From an uncultured delta proteobacterium (GTDB lineage: Bacteria > Desulfobacterota > BSN033 > UBA1163): DNA of 64,000 nt. The notes below the pieces were generated by a model, which ran no database searches, was not told where the DNA came from, and saw only the letters and a list, made by a program, of their open reading frames with translations. The DNA lies in contig CAWHBU010000003.1 of the NCBI GenBank assembly GCA_963827685.1, forward strand, positions 64,001 to 128,000, in the 5' to 3' direction. Numbering within the stretch: the first letter of the stretch is position 1; every line of letters begins with the position of its first letter. Shown piece by piece: positions 5,906 to 55,832 of this stretch. Both the position numbers and the translations under genes were made by a program.

Positions 5906-6042
5906 TAATGAAGCTCCCCGGCCACAAGCCGGGGCTTCCCGGGGCACGTAGTGGCGAGCGGAAAGCGAACCAAGAAATATCGTTTTGATTGTGCCCCATA
6001 ACCCCGCCTACAAGGCGGGGCTTACAGGGCACTTGCCGGTCA
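5906..6042. mobile_element. Non-autonomous IS200/IS605-like palindromic element
   Basis: Two similar hairpins in direct orientation: ccccggc-cacaa-gccgggg (5916) and ccccgcc-tacaa-ggcgggg (6002). No transposase. Confidence 0.5.
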
Positions 6043-6074
6043 CCTCCCTCAAGGTGGGAGAGAGGAGAAAGCCC

Positions 6075-6947: not shown

Positions 6948-6954
6948 GAAGCAC

Positions 6955-7030
6955 ATTGCAGAATGAAAATTGCACAATTAGCGGCGGAAAACATTTTGCA
7001 CTTTGCACTTTTCATTTTGCATTTTTCATT
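6955..7030. repeat. Period-7 repeat hairpin (TTTTGCA family)
   Basis: attgcagaatgaaaattgcacaat ... attttgcactttgcacttttcattttgcatttttcatt. Confidence 0.8.
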
Positions 7031-7086
7031 GGATCAAGGTGATGCCAGGTTTTCTTGTCAACCCTGGGGAGATATGGTACCTTGGG

Positions 7087-31222: not shown

Positions 31223-32845
31223 ACGGGCTGTTGCCCAAATGATGCTTGCAACGATTATACATTCGAGCTATAAGCATGGCAGCACAAATCTGGAATGGAG
31301 ATATTGCCATGATGGGTCAACAGACAGGAATTCAGCCGAAGATCTTCTATCATCATATGAACCTGGACCAAAGAGTTCCCCGGACACACCTTCTGAGAAA
31401 GATCCAGGAGCAGATTGACTTTAACTTCATCTATGCCGAAGTCAGAGATACCTATGGAGGCAATGGGAATGTGTCCATTCCCCCTCCTGTGATCCTGAAG
31501 ATGATGTTGCTATTAGTTCTTTACAATGTTCGATCGGAACGAGAGTTGATGGAGACGATACCCATGCGTTTAGACTGGCTATGGTTTTTAGGGTACGACA
31601 TAGACAGCGAGGTGCCGGATCACAGTGTATTGAGTAAAGCCAGGGCGCGGTGGGGAGTAGAGGCGTTTAGGGGATTTTTTGAGCGAATTGTGTGGCAATG
31701 TGTGGAGGCGGGGTTAGTGGACGGCAGAAAGATCTTTGTGGATTCGAGCCTGGTGGATGCGGATGCATCGAACAACTCCGTGATCGACACGCGATCGTTG
31801 AAGGTTCAACTCCAGGAGGGCTACAAGAAGCTGGAAGCACGATTAGAGGAAAAGAGCGAGAGCACGGATTCCTCCAGGAGATACGTTAAAGAGAACAGCC
31901 GATACATTTCAACGACCGATCCGGATGCATCGATAGTGAATCGTGGCAAGCCCAAACTCTCCTATCAGGTACATCGGGCCGTGGATGAGCGGAGTGAAGT
32001 GATCACGGCGATCGAGACGACAACAGGAGATGTCAATGAAGCGCATGAGATGATTCCTCTGATAGAGAGCCACCGTTTAAATACAGGGATCAATGCGGAT
32101 ACGGTGGTGGCCGACAGCAAATACGGGACGATCGAGAACTTTTTGGCCTGTCATGATAGAGGAGTAGAGGCCCACATGCCGGACTTGAGGGAAATCTCAT
32201 TGAAGCGTACAGAAAAGCAAAATATCTTTGGGGAAGAGCGGTTTGAGTATGATCGGGAGAGTGACACCTATCGTTGTCCAGCTGGGCATCGGTTGAAGCC
32301 TAGATCATTACATATGAGTCGGCAAAGTAGAGATTACGCTGCACCCAAGAAGATTTGTGCAGCATGTGACTTAAGAGAGCAGTGTACTAGAAACAGATCA
32401 GGTCGGACAATTAAGCGACATCTGAGGCAGGAAGATCTAGACAGGATGCGAGAAGCGAGTCGATCGGCCAAAGCGAAGCGGGATATCAAAGTGAGGCAGC
32501 ATTTGATGGAGCGTTCCTATGCCAGAGGGACGCGGTATGGATATGACCGGGCACGATGGAGAGGGCTTTGGCGGGTGCAGATACAGGAATACCTGATCTC
32601 TGCTGTCCAGAACATTGAGGTTTTGCTTAGGTACGGATCTTACCTAAAGAGAAGTCCATCGGTGATGATGGAGCAGATCAAAGGGGCTGTGACAAGGGAG
32701 ATAAGGTCCTTTTCAGATTTTAAGGAGCTAATGAACTCAAAAATTGGCCGAATGGTGCTATTTGGTTTTACTTACCCTCGGCTATCATTCATGGAAACTC
32801 AAACTGTCAGATATTTTTGAATTGGGCTTTTGAGCAACAGCCCGT
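31223..32845 (+). mobile_element. IS1182-family element, copy 1 (1623 bp)
   Basis: 17-bp IRs acgggctgttgcccaaa / tttgagcaacagcccgt; second copy at 53827-55449. Confidence 0.92.
31309..32820 (+). CDS. IS1182-family DDE transposase
   Basis: SERELM, PDHSVLSKAR, VDSS, STTDPDA, VADSKYG, CPAG, C..C..REQC. Confidence 0.9.
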   Translation: MMGQQTGIQPKIFYHHMNLDQRVPRTHLLRKIQEQIDFNFIYAEVRDTYGGNGNVSIPPPVILKMMLLLVLYNVRSERELMETIPMRLDWLWFLGYDIDSEVPDHSVLSKARARWGVEAFRGFFERIVWQCVEAGLVDGRKIFVDSSLVDADASNNSVIDTRSLKVQLQEGYKKLEARLEEKSESTDSSRRYVKENSRYISTTDPDASIVNRGKPKLSYQVHRAVDERSEVITAIETTTGDVNEAHEMIPLIESHRLNTGINADTVVADSKYGTIENFLACHDRGVEAHMPDLREISLKRTEKQNIFGEERFEYDRESDTYRCPAGHRLKPRSLHMSRQSRDYAAPKKICAACDLREQCTRNRSGRTIKRHLRQEDLDRMREASRSAKAKRDIKVRQHLMERSYARGTRYGYDRARWRGLWRVQIQEYLISAVQNIEVLLRYGSYLKRSPSVMMEQIKGAVTREIRSFSDFKELMNSKIGRMVLFGFTYPRLSFMETQTVRYF

Positions 32846-33356
32846 TCAGATGTCATTTTTCTTTAAAATGTGAACGCATTCCATTTTTCACGGATGGGAT
32901 GTAATAGCAACACTGGTGATCTTTTTTCTTCCAGAGGCGTAATACCAGAATATTCGGTAAGCAGTCAGTCAAATGAGTTTTACATGACGGGGTTCGTGAC
33001 TCTCGAACGATGAAAAGCTACTAACTATTATCCTCCCCCTTGACGGGGGAGGATTAAGGTGGGGGTGGACATGGCGTGTTTTTCCCTCACCCCTGCTCTC
33101 TCCCACCAGGGGAGAGGGGGATAAGGGATTTACCTCCTAGGCAATTCAAGGATATTCAGAGAAGGATTTTCAGGCTGGTTTCCATAAATCCAAGGTCTTT
33201 TCTTACAGCTTTTAATTCTTACCGATGTTTCCATCTAAAAATTGTATTTTTGATAAAAGTTTTCATTCGTATCTATTCTGTTTATGTTAAAATGAGATGG
33301 TGTAAAAAGAACGAGTTTTCCCATAAGATAAATCTCTGAAAAAGGAGGGGCATCCT

Positions 33357-35916: not shown

Positions 35917-36123
35917 TATGGAACTCCCTGTAAGAATCTTTTTTTTCGTGACAACCACAAGATGTCCCCCTCACCCTCCCCTCTCCCCCTGGGGAAAAGG
36001 GCAAAATGTTGCGCTGCGAGAGGAAATTGTGGTATAGAGTCATTAATTTCTATTTGCTCCTTCATCCCGCCTTTGATGGACATTCCGTTTGGAGCTGATT
36101 GAGCATAATTGAGGAGGTATGGC

Positions 36124-36921
36124 ATGGCCGAACAAGATCTGCTTTATCGTCGGGAGGATGGCATGGGGATTGTCACCCTCAACCGCCCCAAAAAATTGAA
36201 CGCCATCACCCATCCTATGCATCAACGACTTCATTCGATCATTGAAGAGATTCGCAGAGATGACAGTGTCAGGGTGGGAATTTTGACAGGGAATGGGCGA
36301 GCCTTCTGTGCGGGTACGGATATAACAGGGGAGGTGCCTATTTCAGCGGAAGTCGAAATTCTCAATATGAAAGAAAGAAGCTCAACAGAATATCGGGATT
36401 CCCAGTGGTATTTTAACAGCCTCCCAAAGCCGATGATCTGTGCGATCAATGGTGTAGCCGTGGGCATCGGGGCAGAATTTTCGCTCCATTGCGATATTCG
36501 TATTGCGGCGGAAAGTGCCCGCTGGGGTCAGGTGTTCGTTCTCAGAGGCCTGGTTCCCGATACAGGGGCAGGGACTTACCTTCTTCCGCGGATTGTCGGG
36601 CTGTCCAAGGCCTGTGAACTCGTCTTTTCCGGAGAGATCATTAACGCCCAAGAAATGTTACGAATTGGCTTGGTGAGCAGTGTTGTACCGGACGATCGAC
36701 TGATGATTGCGGCTAAAGAGATGGCTAAAAAGCTGATGAGAGGAGCTCCTTTGGCGGTGCAGATGTCAAAGCAACTCATGTACCTGGGGCTGGAGCGATC
36801 CATTGAGGCTCACCAGGAAGCTGCGCGCTACTGTTTTCGATTGAGTACGCAAACAGAGGATTTTAGAGAAGGGATAAAATCATTCTTTGAAAAACGAGAG
36901 CCCCACTGGGTAGGGAAGTAA
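36124..36921 (+). CDS. Enoyl-CoA hydratase/isomerase family
   Basis: TLNRPKKLNA, AFCAGTD, KPMICAING.AVG, GLVPD; RBS gaggagg. Confidence 0.92.
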   Translation: MAEQDLLYRREDGMGIVTLNRPKKLNAITHPMHQRLHSIIEEIRRDDSVRVGILTGNGRAFCAGTDITGEVPISAEVEILNMKERSSTEYRDSQWYFNSLPKPMICAINGVAVGIGAEFSLHCDIRIAAESARWGQVFVLRGLVPDTGAGTYLLPRIVGLSKACELVFSGEIINAQEMLRIGLVSSVVPDDRLMIAAKEMAKKLMRGAPLAVQMSKQLMYLGLERSIEAHQEAARYCFRLSTQTEDFREGIKSFFEKREPHWVGK

Positions 36922-36999
36922 TCCATTAAGAATTTCTTTGGGGAACGGGGTAAGGAGTTTCTAAGCAAGATCTCCGCCTCATGGCTCAAGGGAGGGAAA

Positions 37000-37806
37000 A
37001 TGGCGTTTAAGGAGATTCTTTACAACATCGAAGGTCCGGTGGCGATCATCACGCTGAATCGGCCCGAAAGGATGAATGCCTTGACGATGGTTACCCATCA
37101 AGAGTTAGAGCAGGCCATCACCGATGCAGACCAAGATGAAAAAGTTAGGGTTGTTGTGATCACCGGCGCCGGGAAGGGATTTTGCTCCGGGGACGATGTG
37201 CAGAATATATTTTTGGACCCCGAAGATAACCTCAAGAGAGAAAAGCAAGCCCGGCTTCAAATCCTGCAAAGGAAGAGGCATTCGATGGGCGGAGCGCACC
37301 GCCTGGTGGAAATCAACAAACCTTCCATAGCAGCGGTCAACGGCGCAGCCGTTGGTTACGGGTGCGATATGAGCCTCATGTGTCATTTGCGGATCGCCTC
37401 GGAAAAGGCTCGTTTCGGGGAGGTGTTTCTCCGGGTGGGCTTGATTCCGGACGCCGCCATGATTCTTCTTCCCCGGTTGGTGGGGACCGCGAAGGCGTAT
37501 GAGATGATCCTGACAACGGATATCATCGACGCGAAAGAGGCGGAGCGAATCGGTTTGGTCAACAAAGTGGTGCCGCATGAGCAGTTAATGGACGCAACGA
37601 TGGAATTGGCCAATAAAATAGCCGCGAAACCGCCCATCTCCGTCCGGTTGGCGATCGAGGGGGTTCGAAGAGGGGTGAATTTGCCTTTGCCTGAATATAT
37701 GGAGTGGCATGCCCAGGCGTTCATGGTTTGTGCGGAAACAGAAGATCATATTGAAGGTTCCAAAGCCTTCATTGAGAAGCGGCAACCCGTATTCAAAGGA
37801 AAGTAG
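37000..37806 (+). CDS. Enoyl-CoA hydratase/isomerase family
   Basis: TLNRPERMNA, FCSGDD, KPSIAAVNGAAVG, GLIPD. Confidence 0.92.
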   Translation: MAFKEILYNIEGPVAIITLNRPERMNALTMVTHQELEQAITDADQDEKVRVVVITGAGKGFCSGDDVQNIFLDPEDNLKREKQARLQILQRKRHSMGGAHRLVEINKPSIAAVNGAAVGYGCDMSLMCHLRIASEKARFGEVFLRVGLIPDAAMILLPRLVGTAKAYEMILTTDIIDAKEAERIGLVNKVVPHEQLMDATMELANKIAAKPPISVRLAIEGVRRGVNLPLPEYMEWHAQAFMVCAETEDHIEGSKAFIEKRQPVFKGK

Positions 37807-37856
37807 AAAAGCAAAACGTTACAAAAAATCTATTAGGATCCACCGAAGGAGGGATT

Positions 37857-38909
37857 ATGATCAAAACGAGATTTACGGAGTTGTTGGGAATAAAACACCC
37901 GATCATGCTGGCAGGAATGAACTGGATTACGACCCCCAAACTGGTAGCGGCTGTCTGTAACGCAGGGGGATTAGGTATTTTCGCCACCGCTGCCTGCACT
38001 CCCGAAGAAACGCGAAAGAATATCCGGGAGATCCGAGAACTCACCGATCAACCTTTCGGAATCAACCAAATCCTGATCGGCCCTGGAGCCAAAGAAAATA
38101 TCGCGATCGCCATCGAGGAAAAAGTCCCCATCATCAATTATTCCTTGGGAAAACCCTGGTTCGTTGATCAGGTTCATGCCTACGGGGGGAAGGTTATGGG
38201 GACCATCGCGATCGCCAGGCATGCGGCTCGAGCAGCGCAGTTGGGTTGCGATATGCTTGTGGTCACCGGCCACGAAGCCGCCGCCCATGGAGACGTGGCA
38301 ACTTCGATGGTCTTGATCCCTTTAGTGGCCAGTCAGGTAAAAATTCCTCTGATTGCTGCGGGGGGCTTCTATGATGGAAGGGGGCTGGCCGCCGCATTGG
38401 TTCTGGGAGCGGATGCCATTTCTATGGGCACTCGGTTTATCGTGACCCAGGAGAGCAATGTCCACGAGAATTTCAAAAAACTGGTCATTGAAGCCACGGA
38501 GCAGGATACGTTGTACGGTGATGTCTTCGACGGATTACCGGGCAGAGCGTTAAAAAGCCCAGGAGCGGAAGCCATGATGAAGGGAGGTTTCCCGCTCTTT
38601 CAATCCGTGAGGAGTGCTTTGGAGGTCAAGCGGATTCTGAACCTTTCGCTCTCGAAATTCATCGGCCTCAGCTGGAGCATGATGAAATCCGAAGAAGGAA
38701 AGAACCTTTTGATTCAAGCTCGCTCGGCCAATGGGGCCATCCATCATCTGAAAGCGATCAATGAGGGTGATCAAAAGGAAGGGTTTTTATTTGCCGGACA
38801 GTCCGTCGGCGGCATTCAGGATATACCCACGTGCAAAGAACTCATTGAGCGGATCGTCGTGGAGGCCGAGAAGAAATTGGAGGCAGTGGGAATTAATATT
38901 CATGCCTGA
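37857..38909 (+). CDS. Nitronate monooxygenase/FabK-like flavoprotein
   Basis: LGIKHPI..GM, AVCNAGGLG, EAAAHG, AAGGFYDGRG, MGTRF, GQSVG. Confidence 0.88.
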   Translation: MIKTRFTELLGIKHPIMLAGMNWITTPKLVAAVCNAGGLGIFATAACTPEETRKNIREIRELTDQPFGINQILIGPGAKENIAIAIEEKVPIINYSLGKPWFVDQVHAYGGKVMGTIAIARHAARAAQLGCDMLVVTGHEAAAHGDVATSMVLIPLVASQVKIPLIAAGGFYDGRGLAAALVLGADAISMGTRFIVTQESNVHENFKKLVIEATEQDTLYGDVFDGLPGRALKSPGAEAMMKGGFPLFQSVRSALEVKRILNLSLSKFIGLSWSMMKSEEGKNLLIQARSANGAIHHLKAINEGDQKEGFLFAGQSVGGIQDIPTCKELIERIVVEAEKKLEAVGINIHA

Positions 38910-39289
38910 ACCTATGGTGGTTCGAGCCTACCCATGGAAGGAATTGAGCACAAGTGGGCAAGCATAAACCATTAGATACTTATCATTGAAATCTGAGAAT
39001 CTATCTCTAACATTTAAAACAATCTCCCTATGAGCCTCCCCTCCCCACGGTGGGAGGGGATGAAGGGGAGGGGGAACCAATCGATTTTGTCCACCCCCAC
39101 CCTGACCCTCCCCCATTGAAGGAGGAGGGAATATACAGGGTAAATTTCAAATATCTTTAGTTAGATTTTAATCCATGCACAAATCTGCCGGTCTGTTCAG
39201 CGAATCCTCCTGATCTCAATCCATGCGGAACCTATTTGTCCGTTTTATGCCCAACCCCTTTGGTCTTTTCTCAATGCAGAAAAATCCTT

Positions 39290-40102
39290 TCAATACTTCA
39301 TGCCTGGTAGGTTCAGGGAGGCCGTGTTCCCGCCGTCGACAGGAAGAGCCTGGCCCGTAATATAACTGGCTTCATCGCTGGCCAGGAAAAGAATCGCATA
39401 AGCTACCTCCTCCGGCAGTCCATAGCGCCGCAGCTCGCAGCGGCTACCCAGTTTATCAAACTTCCCCCTCGCCCGGGCCAGGTCAAAAACTGGCTTGGTC
39501 ATGCCTGTCTCGATCAGACCCGGACAGACGGCGTTCACCCGAACATTGCAGCCCCCGAGGTCGCAAGCGGCGGTCTGGGTGAAGTTGATTAGGGCTGCTT
39601 TACTGGCACTGTAAGCATTGCCCCCGGCCCCCGACCGGATTCCAGCCACTGAAGCCGTATTCACAATCGCCCCTGATTTGCGTTCCTGCATATGTTTGGC
39701 CACATGTTTTGTCGCGAAGACCGCGCCCAAAACATTGACCTCATAAACTTTGCGCCAGTCATCTTCAGCTTGTTCTTCCAAATTGGCGATCTGTCCCGTT
39801 ATTCCTGCATTGTTGCAAAGAATGTCGATCCGGGAGTAGGTCCGGAGAGCTAAGTCGATCAGCCCTTTGACTTCCTCTTCAATGGCCACACTCGTTTTTC
39901 TTATGATCGCCTCCCCACCCTCTTTCTCAACGAGCTTCAAAGTTTCCTTCAGTCCTTCTTCATATACATCTGCCAGGGCGAGTTTGGCTCCTTCTCTGGC
40001 AAAAAGGATTGCCGCAGCACGGCCAATACCGCTGGCAGCCCCTGTGATAATGGCGACCTTTCCATCCAAACGACCCCTTTTATCGATCTTCATGATCTTC
40101 AC
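39290..40102 (-). CDS. SDR-family oxidoreductase
   Basis: TGAASGIG, NNAG, YSASK, VDGG. Confidence 0.93.
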   Translation of the reverse strand: MKIMKIDKRGRLDGKVAIITGAASGIGRAAAILFAREGAKLALADVYEEGLKETLKLVEKEGGEAIIRKTSVAIEEEVKGLIDLALRTYSRIDILCNNAGITGQIANLEEQAEDDWRKVYEVNVLGAVFATKHVAKHMQERKSGAIVNTASVAGIRSGAGGNAYSASKAALINFTQTAACDLGGCNVRVNAVCPGLIETGMTKPVFDLARARGKFDKLGSRCELRRYGLPEEVAYAILFLASDEASYITGQALPVDGGNTASLNLPGMKY

Positions 40103-40155
40103 CCCCAGAGTGATTTTGTTTTAGCAGATATTTGGGATTTGGAATTCGTCACAGG

Positions 40156-43008
40156 CTACTCATAAATCTCCTGAAGCAGCTCCAGGATCTTCTGCTGGCT
40201 CGGACTGGTGGGATCCGTGGCCATATTCACTGCATCCCTGGAGGCATAAAATGCAATTTTCTTCAAGTCGTCTTTTGGGATGCCGTGAGCCTTTAGGCTG
40301 ATAGGAATATCAAGCTTTCTATAGAGATCAAGCAAGCTTGCCTCCAAATCATTTGAGCGGCTGAGAAGTTGCGCCATGTCCATAAACTGCTCTTTGCAAG
40401 TCTCTTTATTGGCCTTCACAAAACAGAGAAGCCCATAGATGGCTGCCCGGCCATGAGGCATATGGTAATGAGCGCCAAGAACGTGTGTGATGGCATGTCC
40501 CATGCCTAACCCCTTCAGGAAGGCGAGGCCGCCGCACATCGCCGACATGCACATATCGGTACGTGCGGCGATATCATTCCGGTCCTGATATACCCGAGGG
40601 AGACTTCGTCCGATCAACTTTATCCCGTAAACCGCATAGGACTCAAAATAAGGGTGATAGGGGGTCGCCAATGAAACGTACCCCTCAATGCAATGAGCCA
40701 GTGCATCGATTCCCGACTCGACTGTAAGGCCGGCTGGCATCGTCTTACAGTAGACGGGATCAATCACCGCCAGTTTGGGAATTAAGTGATTATTCATTAA
40801 TACAATTTTTAGGTCTCTCTCCTTATCCGTTACCACTGCGCAAGGATTCACCTCGCTTCCTGTCCCTGAAGTAGTAGGGATGCAGATGATTGGCGGGAGA
40901 ATAGGCTTAATCTTGCCACCTCCGCCCACAATACCTTCAAACTCTCTCATCTCACCGGGGTGCGATACCCTAAGCCCAACTGTTTTTGCGGTATCCATCG
41001 AACTCCCGCCCCCGAGGCCCAATATTCCATCACACCCATTATCTAAGTATATCTTCCCGGCCCGCTCGATGAGTTCAATGGAAGGATCAGGCTCCACCTC
41101 CGAAAAAATAACCGTCGATATGCCACTTGACTCCAAAATCTTACGAACTTCGTCAGCCCTTCCCAATGAGAACATAACAGGATCGGTTGTCAGCAATACC
41201 TTCTTTACTCTTAGCTGACGGATCCGCTGCCCTATATTCTCAGCAACACCCGCGCCAAACATAATATCGGGCAGCGGCGGTATGCGGACTTCCCAAGCCT
41301 TTTCCTTTTCCTGATACGAATCCAATCCCTTCCAGATGTTTCTCATCTCTGCATCATCAACATCAAAAACCTGATCCGTCGGAGTAATGGTTTCCTCTCG
41401 GATAAAGACAGCGGCTTTCGAATCCATTTTGCCGAACTCGGCCTTTTCATTGAAAGCGAGCTGGTCTCGCAGAGTCTGCTTACCAACCTCCATGATATCC
41501 TTGGGAGTCAACTGGAGCCCATATCTCGCATTCATGAGATCTGCGAAAAATTGATAAACGGATGCACGGCCGCCAGGAACAGAATTTAAACAGTAGCCAA
41601 ATGCATCGCAGGTGGCTGCCTGAATCTGAGATCTGAGCGAATTTTCAGCCTGCTTGTCTTTGTTCTTGGGAATCCGGTAAGTCAGTCCTGCCGTGTGATC
41701 CGCTCCCATGGGGCTCGTGAAATAGGTAACACCGGTTCCCTTGACCGATCTGGGATCATGGCCGGGTATGGCTTGCCCCTTATAAGCCGGTACACGACTT
41801 ACGTTCAAATACTTTGCTGTGGCCACCACACCGTTGCCCAAGGCCACGCCAAGCGGCGTTTCCTCTTCGATCTCACCCAGAAGTCGGGCAGCGGATTCCC
41901 AATCTCCAAATGACATTTTCCCAGCATCCGCAGCGACACCAAGACTGCTTCCTGTTTCTATGGCATCGACCCCAAGATCGTCACACATGAACTTGAGCCT
42001 CGCAATGGCATCATTATCGATAATGCCCAGATTGCTTCCAAGCAATGCTATCGTTTCATATTCGTAGGCAGAGCAGAGTCGTTTCCCATCTTTGTCGGGA
42101 TAGATGATGGAACACTTTACAACGCAGCCGGGCATGCAGCCGTGCATCTTGCCGCCGCGTTCAAAGAGAATCTCCTGTATTCTATTGCCGCTCACGGCGA
42201 TGAAGTTGTTAGGTGTGCCCGAACGGTAATTATTCGATACCAGGGTTCCTTGGTTAGCGGAATTGTTGATAGCAAATGGGGTGCCGAAACGGGAATACAA
42301 GCTGCAGCTAACATCATGTTTGAGGGTATGAATCCATGATTTTACGACCTTTCGAAATTCCTCCGGATGGGCCATATCAACCTGTCCAGCCTGAGAAGGA
42401 TCAATAATAATCGCCTTGAGTCCTTTCGATCCCATCACTGCACCGAGTCCACCCCTCGCGGCGTTCCGAGACGGATCGCCAAAGATATCCGTAAAGGAGA
42501 CCGACGCTCCTTTGTATTTCCGCTCCCCGGCAATTCCAGTAGATATTACAGCCACTTTTTCACCGTATTTTTTCCGCAGCTTGCCCACCAATTCATAATT
42601 CTTCATGTGGCGGTATTCATCCGCGGGAATGAATGCTGTCTTGTCTTTGGAGACAAATAGGCAGTATAATCGATGATTCCGGGGTCTGCCCTGAACAATA
42701 ATAGCGCGAATTCCAAGTCGGTCGAGGATTTGTGCGGCCGGGCCTCCCGAGTTTGCCTCTTTTATGCCCAGCGTGAGGGGGCTCTTTGCGCCAACGGATA
42801 TGCGCCCAAGTTGTGGCGCTCCAGTGCCCGCCAGAGGGCCTACGGCAACGATAAAGAGATTGTCAGGACCGAGCGGATCAGTAGTCGGAGGAACCTCTTT
42901 GTTCATGATCTTGGCAATTAAGGCACTGCCTCCAATGGTCTTCCACTCCTCCTTTATATTTTCGAATGAAATCTTTTCATTTTTCATGTCCACCCTTAGA
43001 ATCTTCAC
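40156..43008 (-). CDS. Fusion of aldehyde:ferredoxin oxidoreductase (W/Mo-pterin AOR) and iron-containing alcohol dehydrogenase
   Basis: N-terminal ~570 aa: KSPLT, ANSGG, GAVMGSKGLKA, CMPGCVVKC, EYET, DDLGVD, DPR, GADH. C-terminal ~375 aa: GGGSSMD, PTTSGTGSE, DALAH, HAITH..PHG. Confidence 0.9.
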   Translation of the reverse strand: MKILRVDMKNEKISFENIKEEWKTIGGSALIAKIMNKEVPPTTDPLGPDNLFIVAVGPLAGTGAPQLGRISVGAKSPLTLGIKEANSGGPAAQILDRLGIRAIIVQGRPRNHRLYCLFVSKDKTAFIPADEYRHMKNYELVGKLRKKYGEKVAVISTGIAGERKYKGASVSFTDIFGDPSRNAARGGLGAVMGSKGLKAIIIDPSQAGQVDMAHPEEFRKVVKSWIHTLKHDVSCSLYSRFGTPFAINNSANQGTLVSNNYRSGTPNNFIAVSGNRIQEILFERGGKMHGCMPGCVVKCSIIYPDKDGKRLCSAYEYETIALLGSNLGIIDNDAIARLKFMCDDLGVDAIETGSSLGVAADAGKMSFGDWESAARLLGEIEEETPLGVALGNGVVATAKYLNVSRVPAYKGQAIPGHDPRSVKGTGVTYFTSPMGADHTAGLTYRIPKNKDKQAENSLRSQIQAATCDAFGYCLNSVPGGRASVYQFFADLMNARYGLQLTPKDIMEVGKQTLRDQLAFNEKAEFGKMDSKAAVFIREETITPTDQVFDVDDAEMRNIWKGLDSYQEKEKAWEVRIPPLPDIMFGAGVAENIGQRIRQLRVKKVLLTTDPVMFSLGRADEVRKILESSGISTVIFSEVEPDPSIELIERAGKIYLDNGCDGILGLGGGSSMDTAKTVGLRVSHPGEMREFEGIVGGGGKIKPILPPIICIPTTSGTGSEVNPCAVVTDKERDLKIVLMNNHLIPKLAVIDPVYCKTMPAGLTVESGIDALAHCIEGYVSLATPYHPYFESYAVYGIKLIGRSLPRVYQDRNDIAARTDMCMSAMCGGLAFLKGLGMGHAITHVLGAHYHMPHGRAAIYGLLCFVKANKETCKEQFMDMAQLLSRSNDLEASLLDLYRKLDIPISLKAHGIPKDDLKKIAFYASRDAVNMATDPTSPSQQKILELLQEIYE

Positions 43009-43205
43009 ATCTATTTCTCCTCTCTGCCTAAGTCAAAACGATCTCTGTTGGATTAAGTGTAACATAGAAGAAAAGGGAACATCTACACTTTCTAAAAGAC
43101 GCTAAGATTGGCCGGTGAAGGCCCTCGTGAATCTATTACTCAATTGGCATATTGAGTATAGGTTCCGGCCTCTGATCGTTTTTCCCTTAAAAAAAAGCAG
43201 ACCAT

Positions 43206-43423
43206 AAGACCCCACGGGCAAAGCCCGTGGTACCTCCATGAAATACCCGCCTACGCCCATGGACGCTGAAACGCTTCGGTGCGCAAGTGCCAGGGCTTCG
43301 GCGGGTTATCCGCCGGTAGCGGAATCCGCCGTAGCATTAACCTAGGGGCACAGGAATGACTAAACCACGGAGTCCGCATTCATCCACGGGCAAAGCCCGT
43401 GGTCTTCTGCGTAGGCGGATAAA
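43206..43423. mobile_element. Non-autonomous IS200/IS605-like element
   Basis: Identical hairpin ccacgggcaaagcccgtgg at 43212 and 43384 in direct orientation; no ORF. Confidence 0.6.
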
Positions 43424-43494
43424 AGACCGACCCTGGGAGACCTCGACCAAGAGTGTTTTGGTGTGAAGAGGTGGAGGAAGCTATGAACCGTCAA

Positions 43495-44286
43495 TTAACG
43501 GCTGGGGCATACGAACCACGGATAGCGGGTAAATTCCTTGTATCCCATTCTTTTATAGACGGGTTCACCATATATACTCGCCTGCAAAATAACACAGCGA
43601 GCACCGAGCTCGAGGGCAGCGTTTCCAACCGCACGTGTGCAGTGCTCGGCTAAACCCATTCCGCGTGCAGCTTCAACAGTACCTACATAATAGATGCCTG
43701 CAATGCTATGACTCATGAGAGCCAAAGCAGAGGAAGCGGGTTTGTTGTCTTGGTATGCCACAACCGCATAAAGATGGAGGACGAGAAAAGCGCTCGGGTC
43801 ACTAAAGACGCTTCTACCCACATCCTCAGGCAATCCAAGTCTGGTGTAGCTGAGCGCTACCACCTCAGCAAAGTCATTAACCATGGCCTTATTTATAACA
43901 TGCCGCAAGGTCACGCCGTCCGATAAGGGTTTATCTTCAAGCATACCCTTAATGAACATACCAGGAAGGTTTGATATCTGGTAGAGATTAAGCTCTTTAC
44001 ACTTTTCGAATAGATCCTTATCAATATGTGCCCGGACAATGATGGTAAAGGACCGCTTGCGCTCTGCAAAGAATGTCTTTGCCTGAGAAATGAGCCGATC
44101 AGGGGATGATTGTAGTTGTCTGCCAACCCTTATGACGAAGTTAACTGCCGGGAATGTGTCCGCTCCACAAACAAAAAGAATATCCCCTCGCTCAGCCATA
44201 TCGATATTTGGATTCCACCTGGAAATCTCACGATGGGATTCAGCCAAGTTTAGATCACTCAAATGAAGCAGTTCATCTTGGTTCAT
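43495..44286 (-). CDS. GNAT-family acetyltransferase
   Basis: AGIYYVGTVEAARGMGLA, LQAS..GEPVYKRMGY. Confidence 0.85.
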   Translation of the reverse strand: MNQDELLHLSDLNLAESHREISRWNPNIDMAERGDILFVCGADTFPAVNFVIRVGRQLQSSPDRLISQAKTFFAERKRSFTIIVRAHIDKDLFEKCKELNLYQISNLPGMFIKGMLEDKPLSDGVTLRHVINKAMVNDFAEVVALSYTRLGLPEDVGRSVFSDPSAFLVLHLYAVVAYQDNKPASSALALMSHSIAGIYYVGTVEAARGMGLAEHCTRAVGNAALELGARCVILQASIYGEPVYKRMGYKEFTRYPWFVCPSR

Positions 44287-44713
44287 CTCGTTTCCCCTTT
44301 GTAAAATTGACCTTCGCATCTTTCAATGACAGGTGGGCAGACCGTAACTTTCTATAGATTTATGCAACTTATTACACACACAGCACGTTCTGTCAAGAAA
44401 GAGACAGTCGGAATGTTCCTTGCTCAAACGCATTTTCGAAAAATGCGAAAGAAGCTTGGCATCGCGCAAAAGGGCTAACCAATCGATTAACTTCAAATGA
44501 ATCCAGCCTTGCACATAAAGGTTTATTTCGTCTCAGCAACATAAAAATAAATGTTCGACACCTCCCCGAAGTCTCCCCCATTCATCAGACCTGGTGCATC
44601 CTGATAAAACGCTTGCTTGTAGACGGAAATTATGATACGAGAAAGCCATGCAAACCAGACGATTGGCTGAGAACTGAAAGGTGAAGAATTATCTTAGTGC
44701 TTGAGGAGGCAGC

Positions 44714-44929
44714 ATGAAGTCCACTGTTCTAAAAACATTTTTGCTCGGGACTACTTTTGGGATAGGAATAACTATTTTATCTTTGTATACTCAAAAACCA
44801 GGTCGCTTGGCTGCTTCAATAGAAGCAATAGCAGAAAGGGGGCGAGCACGAAGAGCCAAAGAAGAAGAAAGGGAACTGCGGAGAGAAAGGCTGAAAGCAT
44901 TGGGCTTTTTGGACGAGGAAATCGATTAG
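44714..44929 (+). CDS. Small hypothetical membrane-anchored protein
   Basis: RBS gaggagg, one hydrophobic helix, charged helical tail. Confidence 0.6.
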   Translation: MKSTVLKTFLLGTTFGIGITILSLYTQKPGRLAASIEAIAERGRARRAKEEERELRRERLKALGFLDEEID

Positions 44930-45044
44930 ATCTTCTAGCCCATGCAAAATGGCATTTGGGATGAAAGACGGCATGAGAGGCAAGAAGAGACACCAAAAGT
45001 TCCTTCCGATTTAAAAAAGTTGTCCTTTATACGATATCCTAATT

Positions 45045-46769
45045 TTACTTCCTTGCTTCTTTCTCTGGTGTTGGAGACGGTTCTCTGCATTCGGACCTGG
45101 TCCACTCCTCGCTGAGTCTTTGCAGGTCCTGCTGCTGCTGCTGAATCGAGAAGTCCGCATATTCAGGGTCGCTTTTCCGATAAGCCTTCTCAATGAAGGC
45201 AATGGATTCGTGGGTGGTGCGAGTCTGTGCGTGGATCATCTCACACTTCTTCAAGCCCCAACGGGCTTCGATGGAGTCCTCCGGATGCGGGGAAGGCCAG
45301 GCTTTTTTCTTCGGCGTCGGAGGTGGTTCTCTGCATTCAGACCTGGTCCACTCCTCGCTGAGCCTTGCCAGGATCTGCTGCTGGTGCCGAATCGAGAAGT
45401 CAGCATAGGCAGCGTCTCTTTTCCGATAAGCCTTCTCAATGAAAGCAATGGATTCGTGGGTGGTGCGAGTCTGTGCGTGGATCATCTCACACTTCTTCAA
45501 GCCCCAACGGGCTTCGATGGAATCCTCCGGATGCGGGGAAAACCAAAGATGGTTCTGATAGATATGATAGAGCGTGACCGAATGGTTCTCTGAGATATCG
45601 ATCGAAACGGCCTCCATCATCCCTTTCGCCATTTCTGGGTCGAGATGGTTCGATTCGATGATCTGCGAAAGATGATCCATCAGTAAGAGGATCATTCCGT
45701 CACGGCCCGTGGTACTGTGAATCTCCCACAATGCCGAGGGTTCTGGACAGCCCCCACGGCGACACCGCTGGTATCCTGCCAGAACAATGGGAACCCTCTC
45801 CCTGAGAAGGCGGGTGATCGTTCCCATCACCTTTTCCATCTTCTCCATAGGGGCATAGTTTGTTGGATCGATCCTCCTGGCCACGGCCTCGACAAAGTCG
45901 GCACCGCTCTCACAGAAGTCAGAGGAATATTGCTCTTCGGAATAAAAGGGGTGCTCTTTGACAGGGAGATATCTCCATTCGCCGTTTTCAGAAACAGGCC
46001 ATCGGAACTTCACAAGACCTGACCAGATTTTGGATTCCGGTCTCGGCGAAAAAAAATATCTCAAACTCAGTTTTTGAACCTTCACTGGAGGCGACGACTC
46101 CCAGGTCTGAAGAGGATGGGCCTGGCTTCCGTCGAGGAAGACATGGCCGATAATCCCGGCATGGGCGTTTGTCTCTAAAAATACCGTTCCGGGTGTGACC
46201 GAATCAGGAGTAATGCGGACAGGATAGGTGTCGAGAGGGAGCGTGCCTGTCCAGGTCTTCGAAAGGAGGTAGAGAAGGGCTGTACGGAAACGGTCGTCTC
46301 TGTGCCACTCCGGGTGGGTTGGAAGATGCTTCCAGTCCGTGGACCAGTGGCCGATCTGTCTGCCATCTAACATGGTAGCGGCAGCGGGAAGATGGGCGAT
46401 CCGGGCATAAATCCAGCGGATGGCATAGACGGCATCCGCACAATCTGTGGGAATCTTATAGCGAATAAAGAAATCCTCTGTAATCGTTTCATCCGCCCAT
46501 TTTTCAAACCGATGCTCTTCTTCAACCGTCCACCGGCGGTCGCCGACTTCCCAGACTTGATCAGGGGATTGAAGCTCCTCGCCCACAGGGCGGGGCTTCC
46601 CGGGCACGAAGTGGCGAGCAGGATGCGAGCAAAGGAAATTTTCATTCATATCGTGCCCCTTGATCCCGTCTACAAGACGGGGGTTCGGGGGCACGTACCG
46701 GCCATCCAGCGTCTGGCTGAAGCACGGAAAGGAAATAAAAACCATCAGAAAGAGAACAAAGAAAGGCAT
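45045..46769 (-). CDS. Exported hypothetical protein with a C-terminal 82-aa tandem duplication
   Basis: Signal-like N-terminus, DCAD and HAG motifs; SPHPEDSIEARWG...EEWTRSECREP occurs twice. Confidence 0.8.
   Translation of the reverse strand: MPFFVLFLMVFISFPCFSQTLDGRYVPPNPRLVDGIKGHDMNENFLCSHPARHFVPGKPRPVGEELQSPDQVWEVGDRRWTVEEEHRFEKWADETITEDFFIRYKIPTDCADAVYAIRWIYARIAHLPAAATMLDGRQIGHWSTDWKHLPTHPEWHRDDRFRTALLYLLSKTWTGTLPLDTYPVRITPDSVTPGTVFLETNAHAGIIGHVFLDGSQAHPLQTWESSPPVKVQKLSLRYFFSPRPESKIWSGLVKFRWPVSENGEWRYLPVKEHPFYSEEQYSSDFCESGADFVEAVARRIDPTNYAPMEKMEKVMGTITRLLRERVPIVLAGYQRCRRGGCPEPSALWEIHSTTGRDGMILLLMDHLSQIIESNHLDPEMAKGMMEAVSIDISENHSVTLYHIYQNHLWFSPHPEDSIEARWGLKKCEMIHAQTRTTHESIAFIEKAYRKRDAAYADFSIRHQQQILARLSEEWTRSECREPPPTPKKKAWPSPHPEDSIEARWGLKKCEMIHAQTRTTHESIAFIEKAYRKSDPEYADFSIQQQQQDLQRLSEEWTRSECREPSPTPEKEARK
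45079..45540. repeat. Intragenic tandem duplication, period 246 bp
   Basis: 45079-45294 is nearly identical to 45325-45540. Confidence 0.93.
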
Positions 46770-46812
46770 CGCTTCATATTAAAAAGAAGGACAGAAGATT
46801 GTGAACCCAAAG

Positions 46813-46957
46813 GTAATCCGTCAGTGACGGGTAATTATTGGTTATAAAGTTATCTTTTTTCCCCGTAGCGTCGGTATTTATTGCCGACGGACTCCGCCCT
46901 CAATCAATGAGGGCGCTACAATTATTATAAAAATCTTTCCCATCACTGACGCATTAC
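46813..46957. mobile_element. MITE-like element (19-bp TIR) with a nested GTAG REP doublet
   Basis: gtaatccgtcagtgacggg / cccatcactgacgcattac (2 mismatches) enclosing the REP at 46865-46919. Confidence 0.6.
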
Positions 46958-47033
46958 ACTCAAAGAACGGGCGGTTGGTCTTTTTGTAACTGAATCTGTC
47001 AAAGAAGCTTTCAATCTGGCTTTCCAATGAAAA

Positions 47034-47708
47034 CTATTTCAGACCCTTGAAGGCCGCCACTTCCCCTTTCAACCAGTCGATCCAACCCTTGATTCCCGCA
47101 CCGGTTTTGCAGGACACCTCCAGGATGGTGATGCGGGGATTCAGCACCAGGACCCGTTTCCGCAAGGCCGCCATGTCAAAATCACTGAGGGACAGATAAT
47201 CGATTTTATTGACTAGCAGAAGATCGCATACGGAGAACATCAGGGGGTACTTGAGGGGTTTGTCATCCCCCTCGGGAACGCTCAGGATCATCACGTTTTT
47301 GTGGGCTCCCGTGTCGAATTCGGCGGGACAGACCAGGTTCCCCACGTTTTCGATGATGACCAGATCCAGTTCGTTCACGGCCATAGCATCAATGCCCTGA
47401 GTGACCATGGTTGCGTCGAGATGGCAGAATCCTCCTGTCCTGAGCTGAATGACCGGTATGCCCTGGGCGGCGACCTTTTCCGCATCAACCGTTGACTCAA
47501 TATCCGCTTCGATAACGCCAAGCCGCACCGCACCTTCAAGGCCTTCGACCGTTTGGAGAATAAGGCTGGTCTTGCCCGAACCCGGCGAGGACATCAGATT
47601 CAAAAGCATCGTCTTTGTCTTCCGGAGGCGTTCCCGGACCTCTGCGGCCTGTTTAATGTTGTCGGAAAGGATCTCTTCCTTCACCTCTATGAGCCTGATA
47701 TCCTCCAC
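47034..47708 (-). CDS. hypB: Hydrogenase nickel incorporation GTPase HypB
   Basis: SSPGSGKT, TGGFCHLDA, ENVGNLVCPAEFD, EGDDKPLKYP, NKID. Confidence 0.96.
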   Translation of the reverse strand: MEDIRLIEVKEEILSDNIKQAAEVRERLRKTKTMLLNLMSSPGSGKTSLILQTVEGLEGAVRLGVIEADIESTVDAEKVAAQGIPVIQLRTGGFCHLDATMVTQGIDAMAVNELDLVIIENVGNLVCPAEFDTGAHKNVMILSVPEGDDKPLKYPLMFSVCDLLLVNKIDYLSLSDFDMAALRKRVLVLNPRITILEVSCKTGAGIKGWIDWLKGEVAAFKGLK

Positions 47709-48058
47709 TACTGCACCTCCATCTCCTTGATGGTGTATTCTCTTCCAGAAAGAAGCGTGCCGCCCTTCTCCCCGCAGGCAGGACAGACAAGCTCGCCCAT
47801 TCTTGCCTTCTCCGCTTCATAGGACGTGGAACAGGCATGACACTGTACCACCATGGGCGTCCTTTCAATTTTGAGCTTCGCCCCCTCCGCTACGGTGCCC
47901 TTGCTCAGGTAATCGAAATAACGCTGAATCCAATCGTCTTCGAGATCGCTGAGCTTGCCCACCTGCAGGTGAATGGTCATCACCTTCTGGACGCTGTTCA
48001 TTTCGGCGTGTTTCAGCACAATCTTCAGGATACTCTCCGTGATCGCAAGTTCATGCAT
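47708..48058 (-). CDS. hypA: Nickel metallochaperone HypA
   Basis: MHELAI start, CxxC...CPxC, SGRE. Confidence 0.95.
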   Translation of the reverse strand: MHELAITESILKIVLKHAEMNSVQKVMTIHLQVGKLSDLEDDWIQRYFDYLSKGTVAEGAKLKIERTPMVVQCHACSTSYEAEKARMGELVCPACGEKGGTLLSGREYTIKEMEVQ

Positions 48059-48333
48059 ACTGATACTTTTCCACTTCTCCGTCAAAATAATTTGGCTGTC
48101 TTTCTTACCCAGGCATTGATTAGGTTTCAAGGACTCGCCGGTAATTGGTGAGCCTGTTTCGCCGTGCTCTTTTTTGGCATCACTGCCCCTATTTGGGTCA
48201 TCCTATACCATTAAAAGAATATTTTAAAGCTTTAATATGACTTCGTGAAACCTTGCCTCTGTTTGCCCTTGACACAAAGGTCTTTTTTTTTGATACTAAC
48301 GTAAATATAGGTGGAAGGAGGAGGACACAAAAA

Positions 48334-49327
48334 ATGGCGGACATGACACTTTGTCGGCAACTGGCCGAAGCGCTTGGTGCAGGTGAGTCTCCCTTGATTA
48401 AGAAGATTTTTGAGACCCTTGTCAATGACGATGAGGCGAAGGTTTTGCTGGCGGCAGCGCCGCCGGCAACAACGGAGGAGATCAGCCAGAAAACGGGACT
48501 CCATCAGGAAACGATCAAGAGCATGATGGAATCCTTGTTCAAGAGGGGGCTTATATTCAAAACGAAAAAGGGTGAGGAAATGAAGTACTATCGCGTGAAA
48601 ACCGTTCCTCAGATGCACGATGCGACCATCCTTACCCTCGGTATATCGAGGGAGGTGCTGGATCTCTGGAAAGCCTATATGGAAAAGGAATGGCCGGAAT
48701 ATGGCCAGAAAATCATGAATTTCCTTCCCGGTTCCCTCATGCGTGTGATTCCGGTAAACGAAAGCATCGAGCCGGGATCGCGGATACTCGCCTATGAAGA
48801 TGTGATCAAGATCATCGAGAATGCCCGAACCCTGAGTGTCACGAAATGTTCGTGTCGCGTAATTGACGGCGCCTGCGGAAAACCACTGGAAGTCTGCATA
48901 CAGGTGGATCGCGCGGCCGAATACAACCTGGAGAGGGGTACGGGAAGGGCTTTGTCCAAAGGAGAGGCCATTGAAATGCTGAAAATGTGCGAGGAAAAAG
49001 GGCTCGTTCATGTCGCCGACAATCGCCAGGTGGTGGGCCATGTCATCTGTAATTGCTGCAGGGACTGCTGTATGAACTGGCCCATCATGACGGGTCCGAA
49101 AAAATGGGTCGCCCCCAGCCGCTTCGAGGCCGTAGTAGATCCCGATTTGTGTACGGCCTGTGAAACCTGTCTGGAGCGATGCTTCTTCGACGCCATTGCT
49201 GTGAATGACAATCTGGCCGTCGTGAATGCAGAAAAAATGCATGGGATGCGGCGTTTGCACGGTCTCCTGCCCCACGGAGGCGCTGCGGCTCAAAGAGGTC
49301 CGAGCTGCCGATTTCGTCCCGGCTTGA
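48334..49327 (+). CDS. 4Fe-4S binding protein (N-terminal HTH-like) with a frameshift in the A6 run at 49232-49237
   Basis: CSCR, GLVH, ICNCCRDCC, CTACETCLERC. Removing one A restores KCMGCGVCTVSCP...FVPA*. Confidence 0.85.
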
Positions 49328-53826: not shown

Positions 53827-55449
53827 ACGGGCTGTTGCCCAAATGATACTTGCAACGATTATACATTCGAGCTATAAGCATGGCAGCACAAATCTGGAAT
53901 GGAGATATTGCCATGATGGGACAACAGACAGGAATTCAGCCGAAGATCTTCTATCATCATATGAACCTGGAACAAAGGATTCCCCGGACACACCTTCTGA
54001 GAAGGATTCAAGAGCAGATTGACTTTAACTTCATCTATGCAGAGGTCAGAGACACCTATGGGGGCAACGGGAATGTGTCCATTCCCCCTCCTGTAATCCT
54101 GAAGATGATGTTGCTGTTAGTTCTTTACAATGTTCGATCGGAACGAGAGTTAATGGAAACGATCCCCATGCGTTTAGACTGGCTATGGTTTTTAGGGTAC
54201 GACATAGACAGTGAGGTGCCGGATCACAGTGTTTTGAGTAAAGCCAGGGCGCGGTGGGGAGTGGAAGCGTTTAGGGGGTTCTTTGAGCGAATGGTGTGGC
54301 AATGTGTGGAGGCGGGGTTAGTGGACGGCAGAAAGATCTTTGTGGATTCGAGCCTGGTGGATGCGGATGCATCGAACAACTCCGTGATCGACACGCGATC
54401 GTTGAAGGTTCAACTCCAGGAGGGCTACAAGAAGCTGGAAGCACGATTAGAGGAAAAGAGCGAGAGCACGGATTCCTCCAGGAGATACGTTAAAGAGAAC
54501 AGCCGATACATTTCAACGACCGATCCGGATGCATCGATAGTGAATCGTGGCAAGCCCAAACTCTCCTATCAGGTACATCGGGCCGTGGATGAGCGGAGTG
54601 AAGTGATCACGGCGATCGAGACGACAACAGGAGATGTCAATGAAGCGCATGAGATGATTCCTCTGATAGAGAGCCACCGTTTAAATACAGGGATCAATGC
54701 GGATACGGTGGTGGCCGACAGCAAATACGGGACGATCGAGAACTTTTTGGCCTGTCATGATAGAGGAGTAGAGGCCCACATGCCGGACTTGAGGGAAATT
54801 TCATTGAAGCGTACAGAAAAGCAGAATATCTTTGGGGAAGAGCGGTTTGAGTATGATCGGGAGAGTGACACCTATCGTTGTCCGGCTGGGCATCGGTTGA
54901 AGCCTAGATCATTACATATGAGTCGGCAAAGTAGAGATTACGCTGCACCCAAGAAGATTTGTGCAGCATGTGACTTAAGAGAGCAGTGTACTAGAAACAG
55001 ATCAGGTCGGACAATTAAGCGACATCTGAGGCAGGAAGATCTAGACAGGATGCGAGAAGCGAGTCGATCGGCCAAAGCGAAGCGGGATATCAAAGTGAGG
55101 CAGCATTTGATGGAGCGTTCCTATGCCAGAGGGACGCGGTATGGATATGACCGGGCACGATGGAGAGGGCTTTGGCGGGTGCAGATACAGGAATACCTGA
55201 TCTCTGCTGTCCAGAACATTGAGGTTTTGCTTAGGTACGGATCTTACCTAAAGAGAAGTCCATCGGTGATGATGGAGCAGATCAAAGGGGCTGTGACAAG
55301 GGAGATAAGGTCCTTTTCAGATTTTAAGGAGCTAATGAACTCAAAAATTGGCCGAATGGTGCTATTTGGTTTTACTTACCCTCGGCTATCATTCATGGAA
55401 ACTCAAACTGTCAGATATTTTTGAATTGGGCTTTTGAGCAACAGCCCGT
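53827..55449 (+). mobile_element. IS1182-family element, copy 2 (1623 bp)
   Basis: Same IRs, length and orientation as 31223-32845. Confidence 0.92.
53913..55424 (+). CDS. IS1182-family DDE transposase
   Basis: Near-identical to the transposase at 31309. Confidence 0.9.
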   Translation: MMGQQTGIQPKIFYHHMNLEQRIPRTHLLRRIQEQIDFNFIYAEVRDTYGGNGNVSIPPPVILKMMLLLVLYNVRSERELMETIPMRLDWLWFLGYDIDSEVPDHSVLSKARARWGVEAFRGFFERMVWQCVEAGLVDGRKIFVDSSLVDADASNNSVIDTRSLKVQLQEGYKKLEARLEEKSESTDSSRRYVKENSRYISTTDPDASIVNRGKPKLSYQVHRAVDERSEVITAIETTTGDVNEAHEMIPLIESHRLNTGINADTVVADSKYGTIENFLACHDRGVEAHMPDLREISLKRTEKQNIFGEERFEYDRESDTYRCPAGHRLKPRSLHMSRQSRDYAAPKKICAACDLREQCTRNRSGRTIKRHLRQEDLDRMREASRSAKAKRDIKVRQHLMERSYARGTRYGYDRARWRGLWRVQIQEYLISAVQNIEVLLRYGSYLKRSPSVMMEQIKGAVTREIRSFSDFKELMNSKIGRMVLFGFTYPRLSFMETQTVRYF

Positions 55450-55832
55450 TGAGACCTGACCTTTATGATGAACCAGGAAGTGCCCGAACACGGGGAGACA
55501 CTGAAAAAAACAGAGAAATTCATGACATTTGAAGATTTGACCCTATTGCACCACTTCCGAAGTTATGCTCTCTCTCATCGGTGATCATCAATCATTAGCC
55601 TTGAGTAATCTCCAAACTTTGTGAAAGAGGTAGCCCCCTTTTTTGACTCTTTCTTCCTGAAGTCTGCAACAGGACATCATAGCGAAACATGCTCGATTTC
55701 AATCCGTTATCATCGATGCTCTTTTCTCTTCCCCTACCGCTGGAGCAAGAAATAGTGCAAATAATGCTTGACAAAATTTTCCATGGTGGTATAGGGAATC
55801 GTATACCAAATTGAAATGAGAGGAGGACGAAC

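Follow-up and report, generated by a model that had tools for sequence, protein, structure and literature searches.

The window analysed here, a stretch of 64,000 nucleotides (nt) from an uncultured delta proteobacterium, contains a gene in which an aldehyde:ferredoxin oxidoreductase (AOR) and an iron-containing alcohol dehydrogenase (Fe-ADH) are joined in one polypeptide, and it was confirmed that this is a genuine, complete and in-frame AOR::Fe-ADH protein. Based on its sequence and predicted fold, the fusion is probably (with a probability of roughly 0.7) a bifunctional, coenzyme A (CoA)-independent alcohol/aldehyde/acid oxidoreductase, which would use NAD(H) and ferredoxin and hand over the aldehyde locally between its two halves. 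The gene occupies 40156..43008 (minus strand) and codes for 950 amino acids (aa) in a single open frame, from a GTG start preceded by the ribosome-binding sequence GAGAGGAG to a TAA stop (included in the coordinates), with no internal stops. In the source genome (G000) it is found at C3:104159-107008, as one open frame with a 100% match.

Architecture and distribution of the fused gene

The first-pass annotation, which had been made from the letters of the window, claimed that a complete AOR-family region is fused in frame to a complete Fe-ADH, and suggested an architecture search for AFOR_N, AFOR_C and Fe-ADH. The Pfam search agreed with it, as AFOR_N, AFOR_C, Fe-ADH and ADH_Fe_C were returned in this order within the one open 950-aa frame, all four on the minus strand and far over their gathering scores. 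AFOR_N, the pterin-binding N-terminal AOR domain, which was aligned to 1aor, covers 42400..43005 (aa 2-203; PF02730, E 1.1e-57, 195.5 bits with a cut-off of 29.8), and AFOR_C, which corresponds to AOR domains 2 and 3, covers 41416..42348 (aa 221-531; PF01314, E 7.1e-45, profile 2-334/385, 154.2 bits with a cut-off of 27), with the AOR body extending beyond it to approximately aa 568. The Rossmann-like N-terminal domain of the Fe-ADH follows at 40756..41268 (aa 581-751; PF00465, E 9.1e-48, 162.5 bits with a cut-off of 31.3) and holds D609 and GGGS 666-669, while the helical ADH_Fe_C domain at 40162..40725 (aa 762-949; PF25137, E 7.3e-38, 130.6 bits with a cut-off of 27) contains the putative metal ligands D768, H772, H838 and H852. 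Each feature of sequence and predicted fold that was examined places the protein in the AOR/WOR family as well as among the group III ADHs.

The same architecture is present well beyond the window. At least 120 relatives were listed from NCBI, ENA, JGI and Logan assemblies, all with the identical Pfam set, 83-95% identity and lengths of 916-969 aa, and the homologue search gave 1356 proteins under E 0.001 among 7999 scored candidates. Eleven loci in metagenome-assembled genomes (MAGs) of Thermodesulfobacteriota and Desulfomonilaceae also encode the fusion, with 75-96% identity. Within the window's taxonomic family, a full or contig-cut copy was found in 13 of 55 species genomes, namely in 11 of the 15 genomes of the window's genus and in one genome each of two further genera. 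When a 290-aa query across the junction (aa 431-720) was searched in an even sample of 401 genomes from the phylum, 16 genomes from six families had a match, 15 of which span the query fully within stop-free open frames of 838-986 aa.

The junction itself was placed at 41287..41313 on the minus strand (aa 566-574), in agreement with the earlier estimate of a position near 41285, and the protein sequence spanning it reads ...SYQEKEKAWEVR... Contigs assembled from sequencing runs cross it without a stop or an indel. The contig of run X1 (41252-41712), which may be the source sample, bridges it with 0 differences, that of X7, from peat in a separate study, covers 41164-41389, and that of X18, from a wetland RNA library, covers 40598-41384 with 40 differences and 0 gaps. 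Among the run contigs, the sole indel reported occurs in one from X2, as a compensated pair (41341/41344); the lack of X2 depth at 41020-41211, given contigs and a filter, was counted as no finding.

Very little sequence separates the two halves. The closest stand-alone AOR (P0125, 568 aa, 53% identical), among the best 150 of 26709 matches that were considered from a representative library at 50% identity, aligns to residues 2-565 of the query, and its residue 565 of 568 pairs with query 565, which puts the AOR end at approximately 568. As residue 3 of the stand-alone ADH P0264 pairs with query 574, the linker would be approximately 3-5 residues long. Conservation across positions 560-580 was 0.79, compared to 0.80-0.83 in the domains (31 aligned proteins at least 50% identical). 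The AlphaFold2 model of the whole chain had a mean predicted local distance difference test score (pLDDT) of 87.2 and a predicted template modelling score (pTM) of 0.85; for halves that are not placed relative to each other, we would expect a pTM of approximately 0.57, which is the larger half's share. The near-absent but conserved linker and this pTM suggest a fixed arrangement, and the model accordingly proposes one placement of the two halves. No PDB chain covering both halves was present among the Foldseek matches listed, where the top TMq was 0.54.

Conserved motifs in the two halves

The Fe-S cysteine motif noticed in the first-pass annotation is present in the AOR half with all of its members. 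C291-x3-C295-x3-C299 (42112..42138, minus strand), near-invariant in 36 fusion proteins, would provide three of the four [4Fe-4S] ligands, and C473 (41590..41592, minus strand) would be the fourth; it occupies an invariant alignment column within the pterin motif CDAFGYC, which was aligned to the DsaGlC motif of 1aor. The active-site acid motif of AORs is found as E316-Y317-E318 (42055..42063, minus strand), aligned to EYE of 1aor and at least 90% conserved, and the pterin motifs CDDLGVD (342-348) and CDAFGYC (467-473) and the GADH motif (435-438) also align to their 1aor counterparts with at least 90% conservation. The second-shell residues of aldehyde-oxidising AORs are kept as well. The pterin and second-shell Glu/His motifs are presumed to have the functions that such motifs have in AORs, which are partly described in PMC12096430.

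The AOR half aligned to 1aor with E 2e-52 over residues 3-525, and its predicted fold matched 1aor_A (Foldseek E 4.6e-30, TMt 0.83, 601 columns) and 9g7j, the AOR of Clostridium autoethanogenum (TMt 0.83). A placement with BamB/YdhV, the class II benzoyl-CoA reductases, was rejected, as the match to 4z3w (BamB) had E 2.3e-18 and covered only residues 23-231. By sequence, the AOR half is a member of a shorter (~570 aa), uncharacterised clade.

The claim that the C-terminal half is a complete Fe-ADH with its NAD and metal motifs is likewise borne out. The GGGS NAD loop (666-669) is invariant over the 36 fusion proteins, and D672, K675 and the metal ligands D768, H772, H838 and H852 are invariant or at least 90% conserved, so that all cofactor and catalytic motifs of both halves are kept across the 36 fusions, down to 33% identity. 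The Asp/His/His/His metal site has spacings of 4 and 14, as in FucO. D609 closes the second strand of the Fe-ADH domain, a position that is presumably acidic in NAD-preferring Fe-ADHs. The predicted fold of this half matched Fe-ADH structures with TMt 0.89-0.92. As their NCBIfam scores were all under the cut-offs, the labels ErcA, 4-hydroxybutyrate dehydrogenase, choline dehydrogenase and lactaldehyde reductase were rejected, and the equivalogs GbsB, FucO and EutG were likewise not assigned.

A proposed route through a shared aldehyde

In the proposed mechanism, the C-terminal Fe-ADH would interconvert an alcohol and an aldehyde with NAD(H) at an iron site, and the N-terminal AOR, with a tungsten- or molybdenum-pyranopterin and a [4Fe-4S] cluster, would interconvert the aldehyde and a carboxylic acid with external ferredoxin. 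The aldehyde would be the sole thing common to the two active sites. Oxidation of an alcohol to its aldehyde with NAD+ is uphill, and so is the reduction of an acid with ferredoxin; because both aldehyde-forming steps are uphill, the aldehyde would be scarce in either direction. As the fusion would hold the two sites at a fixed, close range and in a 1:1 stoichiometry, this reactive and scarce intermediate could be captured locally, with each uphill step (alcohol to aldehyde, or acid to aldehyde) pulled by the other domain, which would be of benefit in either direction. Ferredoxin would be needed because the acid/aldehyde couple lies at -520 to -560 mV, a value given in an excerpt of PMC10816221.

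It had been suggested earlier that the protein couples NAD(P)H and ferredoxin. This could be retained in the sense of a 1:1 stoichiometry that is set through the aldehyde, but not in the sense of an electron path, since the Fe-ADH domain has no electron-transfer cofactor and electronic coupling of NAD(H) and ferredoxin is therefore not expected. The architecture, the intact motifs, the conservation and repeated origin of the fusion and the pairing of AOR with Fe-ADH in the genome were observed, whereas we infer the activity of both domains, the aldehyde hand-over, the cofactor metal, the NAD preference, the direction and the substrate.

Several observations weigh against this bifunctional reading. 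Everything known of the fusion family comes from sequence and predicted fold, and the pTM of 0.85 was obtained from a shallow alignment of 36 rows. The cysteine spacing of the fusion is Cx3Cx3C, compared to Cx2Cx3C in the Pyrococcus furiosus AOR (1aor), and because of this deviation C291, C295, C299 and C473 can only be proposed as the ligand set. Neither half reached an NCBIfam equivalog cut-off, and the top match was to the ErcA regulatory ADH-like model (270.8 bits with a cut-off of 550); a substrate was therefore not assigned, and a non-catalytic role of the ADH-like half is conceivable. The neighbouring genes are not conserved between families and give no pathway context for any substrate or direction. 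The X18 contigs from the RNA library are approximately 95% identical, and so come from a relative, and could reflect DNA carry-over. In two long-read MAGs (L008 8001-10848 and L011 8001-10846), the match to the fusion gene is split between two reading frames, the break being at approximately aa 623-626 and aa 303-304, respectively, which could be due to errors in sequencing or to decay of these copies.

It is possible, though we think it unlikely, that the fusion only secures co-expression and a 1:1 stoichiometry of the two enzymes, with the aldehyde diffusing freely or the domains serving different substrates. This would agree with the source genome, which also has split, adjacent AOR and ADH genes working as separate proteins, but the linker of the fusion is near-absent and conserved like the domains, the pTM covers the whole chain, and at least four origins in both domain orders (see below) are hard to ascribe to convenience of expression alone. 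In favour of the bifunctional reading, the 5.2-Mb source genome has, next to its 13 AFOR_N genes, only three Fe-ADH genes, each of them fused to, adjacent to or near an AOR gene. At one split locus (L026, G000:C6:177000-188000, 3222-7030) an ADH gene (386 aa) is followed after a 15-nt gap by an AOR gene (612 aa) and by a short-chain dehydrogenase/reductase (SDR) gene overlapping by 4 nt. At the other (L027, G000:C7:196500-207500, 3891-7464), the order is AOR (634 aa), an SCP2 lipid-carrier-like protein (141 aa) and ADH (388 aa), and the SCP2 gene between the two hints at lipophilic substrates for the L027 pair. Two to three of the 13 AFOR_N genes were BamB-like by partial matches, and the genome appears to be that of an unusually AOR-rich anaerobe.

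For the physiological direction, oxidation of an alcohol to the acid, yielding one NADH and one reduced-ferredoxin pair, is considered somewhat more likely than acid reduction. The reverse would use acids as an electron sink for reduced ferredoxin and NADH, with alcohols formed as they are in acetogens and Thermoanaerobacter, and is the less likely alternative, even though the characterised uses of AOR-ADH pairs are mostly reductive in the excerpts of PMC10816221 and PMC12096430. The host has dsrA over the cut-off, a probable dsrB and many beta-oxidation genes, which is circumstantial but would fit an oxidiser of fermentation products with an electron sink of its own. The dsrA model matched two short contigs (G000:C11:3-1965 and G000:C12:3-1965) in a near-identical way. 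On each of them, one match exceeds the curated cut-off and is truncated where the contig begins, and a weaker match to the same model directly downstream of it was taken as a probable dsrB. These duplicate contigs suggest strain duplication or contamination in a bin with 7.98% contamination.

An extension of the bifunctional reading, which we regard as doubtful, is that the protein is an obligately coupled alcohol:acid oxidoreductase, in which the aldehyde is retained between facing active sites by the rigid, linker-free join and NADH and reduced ferredoxin are formed in a strict 1:1 ratio. It would then represent a dedicated module for low-energy growth on alcohols in peat and sediment anaerobes, to which bacteria and Asgard archaea converged at least four times. 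If so, the strict ratio of NADH to reduced ferredoxin would suit electron-confurcating hydrogenases, formate dehydrogenases or the sulfate-reduction machinery.

A loss of enzyme function in one of the halves, for example with the ADH-like half in a regulatory or scaffold role, is very improbable: the ErcA match that would favour it (271 bits) is below the cut-off of 550, while GGGS, D672, K675 and the four metal ligands are conserved in the 36 proteins and the predicted fold matches catalytic Fe-ADHs (TMt 0.92). Lastly, an assembly chimera or a sequencing frameshift merging two adjacent genes, which the contamination of the bin and the frame changes elsewhere in the gene in L008 and L011 could bring to mind, is refuted for practical purposes, since the identical architecture in all of the at least 120 listed independent clusters, the 15 open frames of other species that run fully across the junction and the crossing contigs from separate studies agree.

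Origins, known systems and genomic neighbourhood

Both domains were present together in 11 rows of the 150 library matches. Five of these are the query, P0019 (the representative of its 50% cluster) and three fragments of the same clade (P0122-P0124). Three distant AOR-ADH proteins (P0126, P0130 and P0160) have 34-37% identity, and P0210, P0230 and P0235 carry the domains in the reversed order, ADH-AOR, as confirmed with Pfam; P0235 comes from Heimdallarchaeota MAGs. These other fusions have the same domain pair on one chain, but they differ from the window's clade in their separate positions in the AOR tree, in junction sequences that are quite unlike it and, for some, in the opposite domain order.

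A tree of the AOR domain was built from 93 rows, excluding fragments of less than 400 query residues and stand-alone proteins of less than 540 aa, P0123 and P0124 included in what was left out. In this tree, starred branches force each of the three changes that the AOR-ADH label takes. The ADH-AOR proteins group together in a single clade (100), and the stand-alone P0125 is the sister of the window's clade (100). In the ADH-domain tree (21 rows), the window's clade (100) shares a starred group with stand-alone ADHs and is separated from the other fusions; this tree forces only 2 changes and has poorly resolved deep nodes, which is consistent with separate origins but not proof of them. Taken together, the two trees and the unlike junction sequences suggest that the domains were fused on at least four separate occasions, in both orders. 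A single gain followed by many losses is left as a formal alternative.

The reaction proposed for the fusion is already known from pairs of enzymes. In the excerpts of PMC10816221 and PMC12096430, the two-enzyme AOR-ADH route is established biochemistry, and in Thermoanaerobacter sp. X514, acetogens and P. furiosus it interconverts acid and aldehyde with ferredoxin on a tungsten-pyranopterin, and aldehyde and alcohol with NAD(P)H, with no CoA involved, as is proposed for the fusion. In PMC10816221, the Thermoanaerobacter AOR was produced in an anaerobic host able to use tungsten. The fusion differs in being one polypeptide with a near linker-free join, and its AOR part is shorter (~570 aa) than the characterised AORs, approximately 27-30% identical to them and of the Cx3Cx3C type. 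Compared to the AORs of P. furiosus (1aor) and C. autoethanogenum (9g7j), which are stand-alone proteins of ~605 aa, it shares the fold (TMt 0.83 over ~600 columns), the pterin motifs, EYE, GxxH and four cluster cysteines, whereas the cysteine spacing, a shortened C-terminal tail of the AOR and the extra ADH module set it apart. AorABC from Aromatoleum aromaticum (8c0z) and the electron-bifurcating AOR 9mqx also tie aldehyde oxidation by a tungsten AOR to pyridine nucleotides, according to PMC9295118 and the PDB titles. In them the electrons reach NAD by way of Fe-S and FAD subunits, while the fusion would use NAD(H) at a separate ADH site with no electron wire.

The first-pass annotation had also likened the protein to AdhE, the spirosome-forming acetaldehyde-CoA/alcohol dehydrogenase, and the analogy holds for the architecture, as both join an aldehyde-handling enzyme to a C-terminal Fe-ADH and the ADH halves align. 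The N-terminal half is an AOR and not an NAD-dependent, CoA-acylating aldehyde dehydrogenase, so that the predicted product would be the free acid instead of the acyl-CoA, with ferredoxin in place of one NADH. Identity with AdhE was rejected, as there was no Aldedh match in Pfam and the NF010378 score was 209.9 of 951 bits, over positions 459-862 only.

No description of a natural AOR/Fe-ADH fusion was found in the full-text literature, subscription-only papers and supplements being outside the search, and a term search for 'fusion' and 'fused' gave nothing in the 2025 review of obligate tungsten enzymes (PMC12096430) or in the study of wetland alcohol-cycling MAGs (PMC6544822). The fusion therefore appears to be a conserved, repeatedly evolved and unstudied variant of the two-enzyme route. 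In public records, the fusions carry only the automatic names 'iron-containing alcohol dehydrogenase' or 'aldehyde:ferredoxin oxidoreductase', and because such annotation describes one half, pathway surveys based on names may count one of the two activities. As a marker gene, the fusion would also show where the uncultured Thermodesulfobacteriota that are abundant in peat, soil and sediments turn over alcohols. The AOR-ADH route is under engineering for the production of alcohols from acids and syngas, and a natural single-chain version would offer a ready-made scaffold for this chemistry, as well as a test case for CoA-free aldehyde hand-over as the counterpart of AdhE; the interest would lie mainly in tungsten-enzyme biochemistry and biocatalysis. 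According to PMC9295118, no enzymes other than tungsten AORs are known to reduce non-activated acids.

The neighbourhood of the fusion was compared over 27 loci (L001-L025 and WIN), 26 of them with a single uninterrupted fusion open reading frame (ORF), with the frame changes in L008 and L011. The sole recurring neighbour cluster was an SDR (Pfam adh_short), which was present in 11 loci and directly behind the fusion in seven (L001-L006 and WIN). In the window it lies at 39290..40102 on the minus strand, 53 nt downstream of the fusion, and is probably co-transcribed with it, in the window's genus only. It is only 34% identical to the SDR of the C6 operon. The gene order in the genus is orf274 (no family hit), fusion, SDR, AsmA-like and Ysc84-like. 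In other families the SDR does not adjoin the fusion and the neighbours are unrelated (PBP, radical SAM, MFS, exonuclease VII, GGDEF and others), with a ThiS/MoaD-like gene just upstream of the fusion in L020 and L021.

The suggestion that nearby SDR, crotonase and FabK-like genes hint at a longer-chain substrate did not survive this comparison. Two enoyl-CoA hydratase (ECH, crotonase) genes and a FabK/NMO-like gene lie between the SDR and the AsmA-like gene at 36109-38909; as they are missing at the equivalent place in L001-L006, this block is, by sequence comparison, a strain-specific insertion and not a set of partners of the fusion, and the SDR is a neighbour in the genus only. Beta-oxidation-type genes (acyl-CoA dehydrogenase (ACAD), ECH, thiolase, MaoC and NMO) are found near the fusion in WIN, L007, L009, L014, L017, L019 and L023. 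As the source genome holds 22 ECH and 33 ACAD matches, with 7.9% of its length within 5 kb of one of them, this association was not taken as evidence for a long-chain substrate and is at most a weak hint; ECH or ACAD in three or four of approximately 14 contexts is a post hoc enrichment that is at best weak.

The spacer upstream of the fusion (43009..43494) contains a dispersed repeat of ~220 nt at 43210-43429. As the spacer is only approximately 100 nt long in relatives, the repeat looks like an insertion of a miniature inverted-repeat transposable element (MITE) type directly upstream of the gene. It carries a 20-nt palindrome twice, at a distance of 172 nt, and has 25 matches in the genome, two of them 98-99% identical. 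A promoter and terminator scan gave no convincing site upstream, with 9 promoter-like sites compared to 4.4 expected and none in the spacer on the strand of the gene, and a permissive Rfam scan of 38000-48500 gave no matches, the Moco/Wco riboswitch included.

Two direct insertion sequence copies (31223-32850 and 53827-55454; 1628 nt, 98.2% identical), which encode a 524-aa DUF772/DDE_Tnp_1_6 transposase, flank ~21 kb including the fusion gene. The product of orf274 (43495-44319) had no family hit, and its C-terminal part is GNAT-like by eye. Further upstream, a 574-aa ORF (45045-46769, minus strand), which matched neither Pfam nor NCBIfam, contains a tandem duplication at 45055-45540, consisting of two 240-nt units that are 91% identical.

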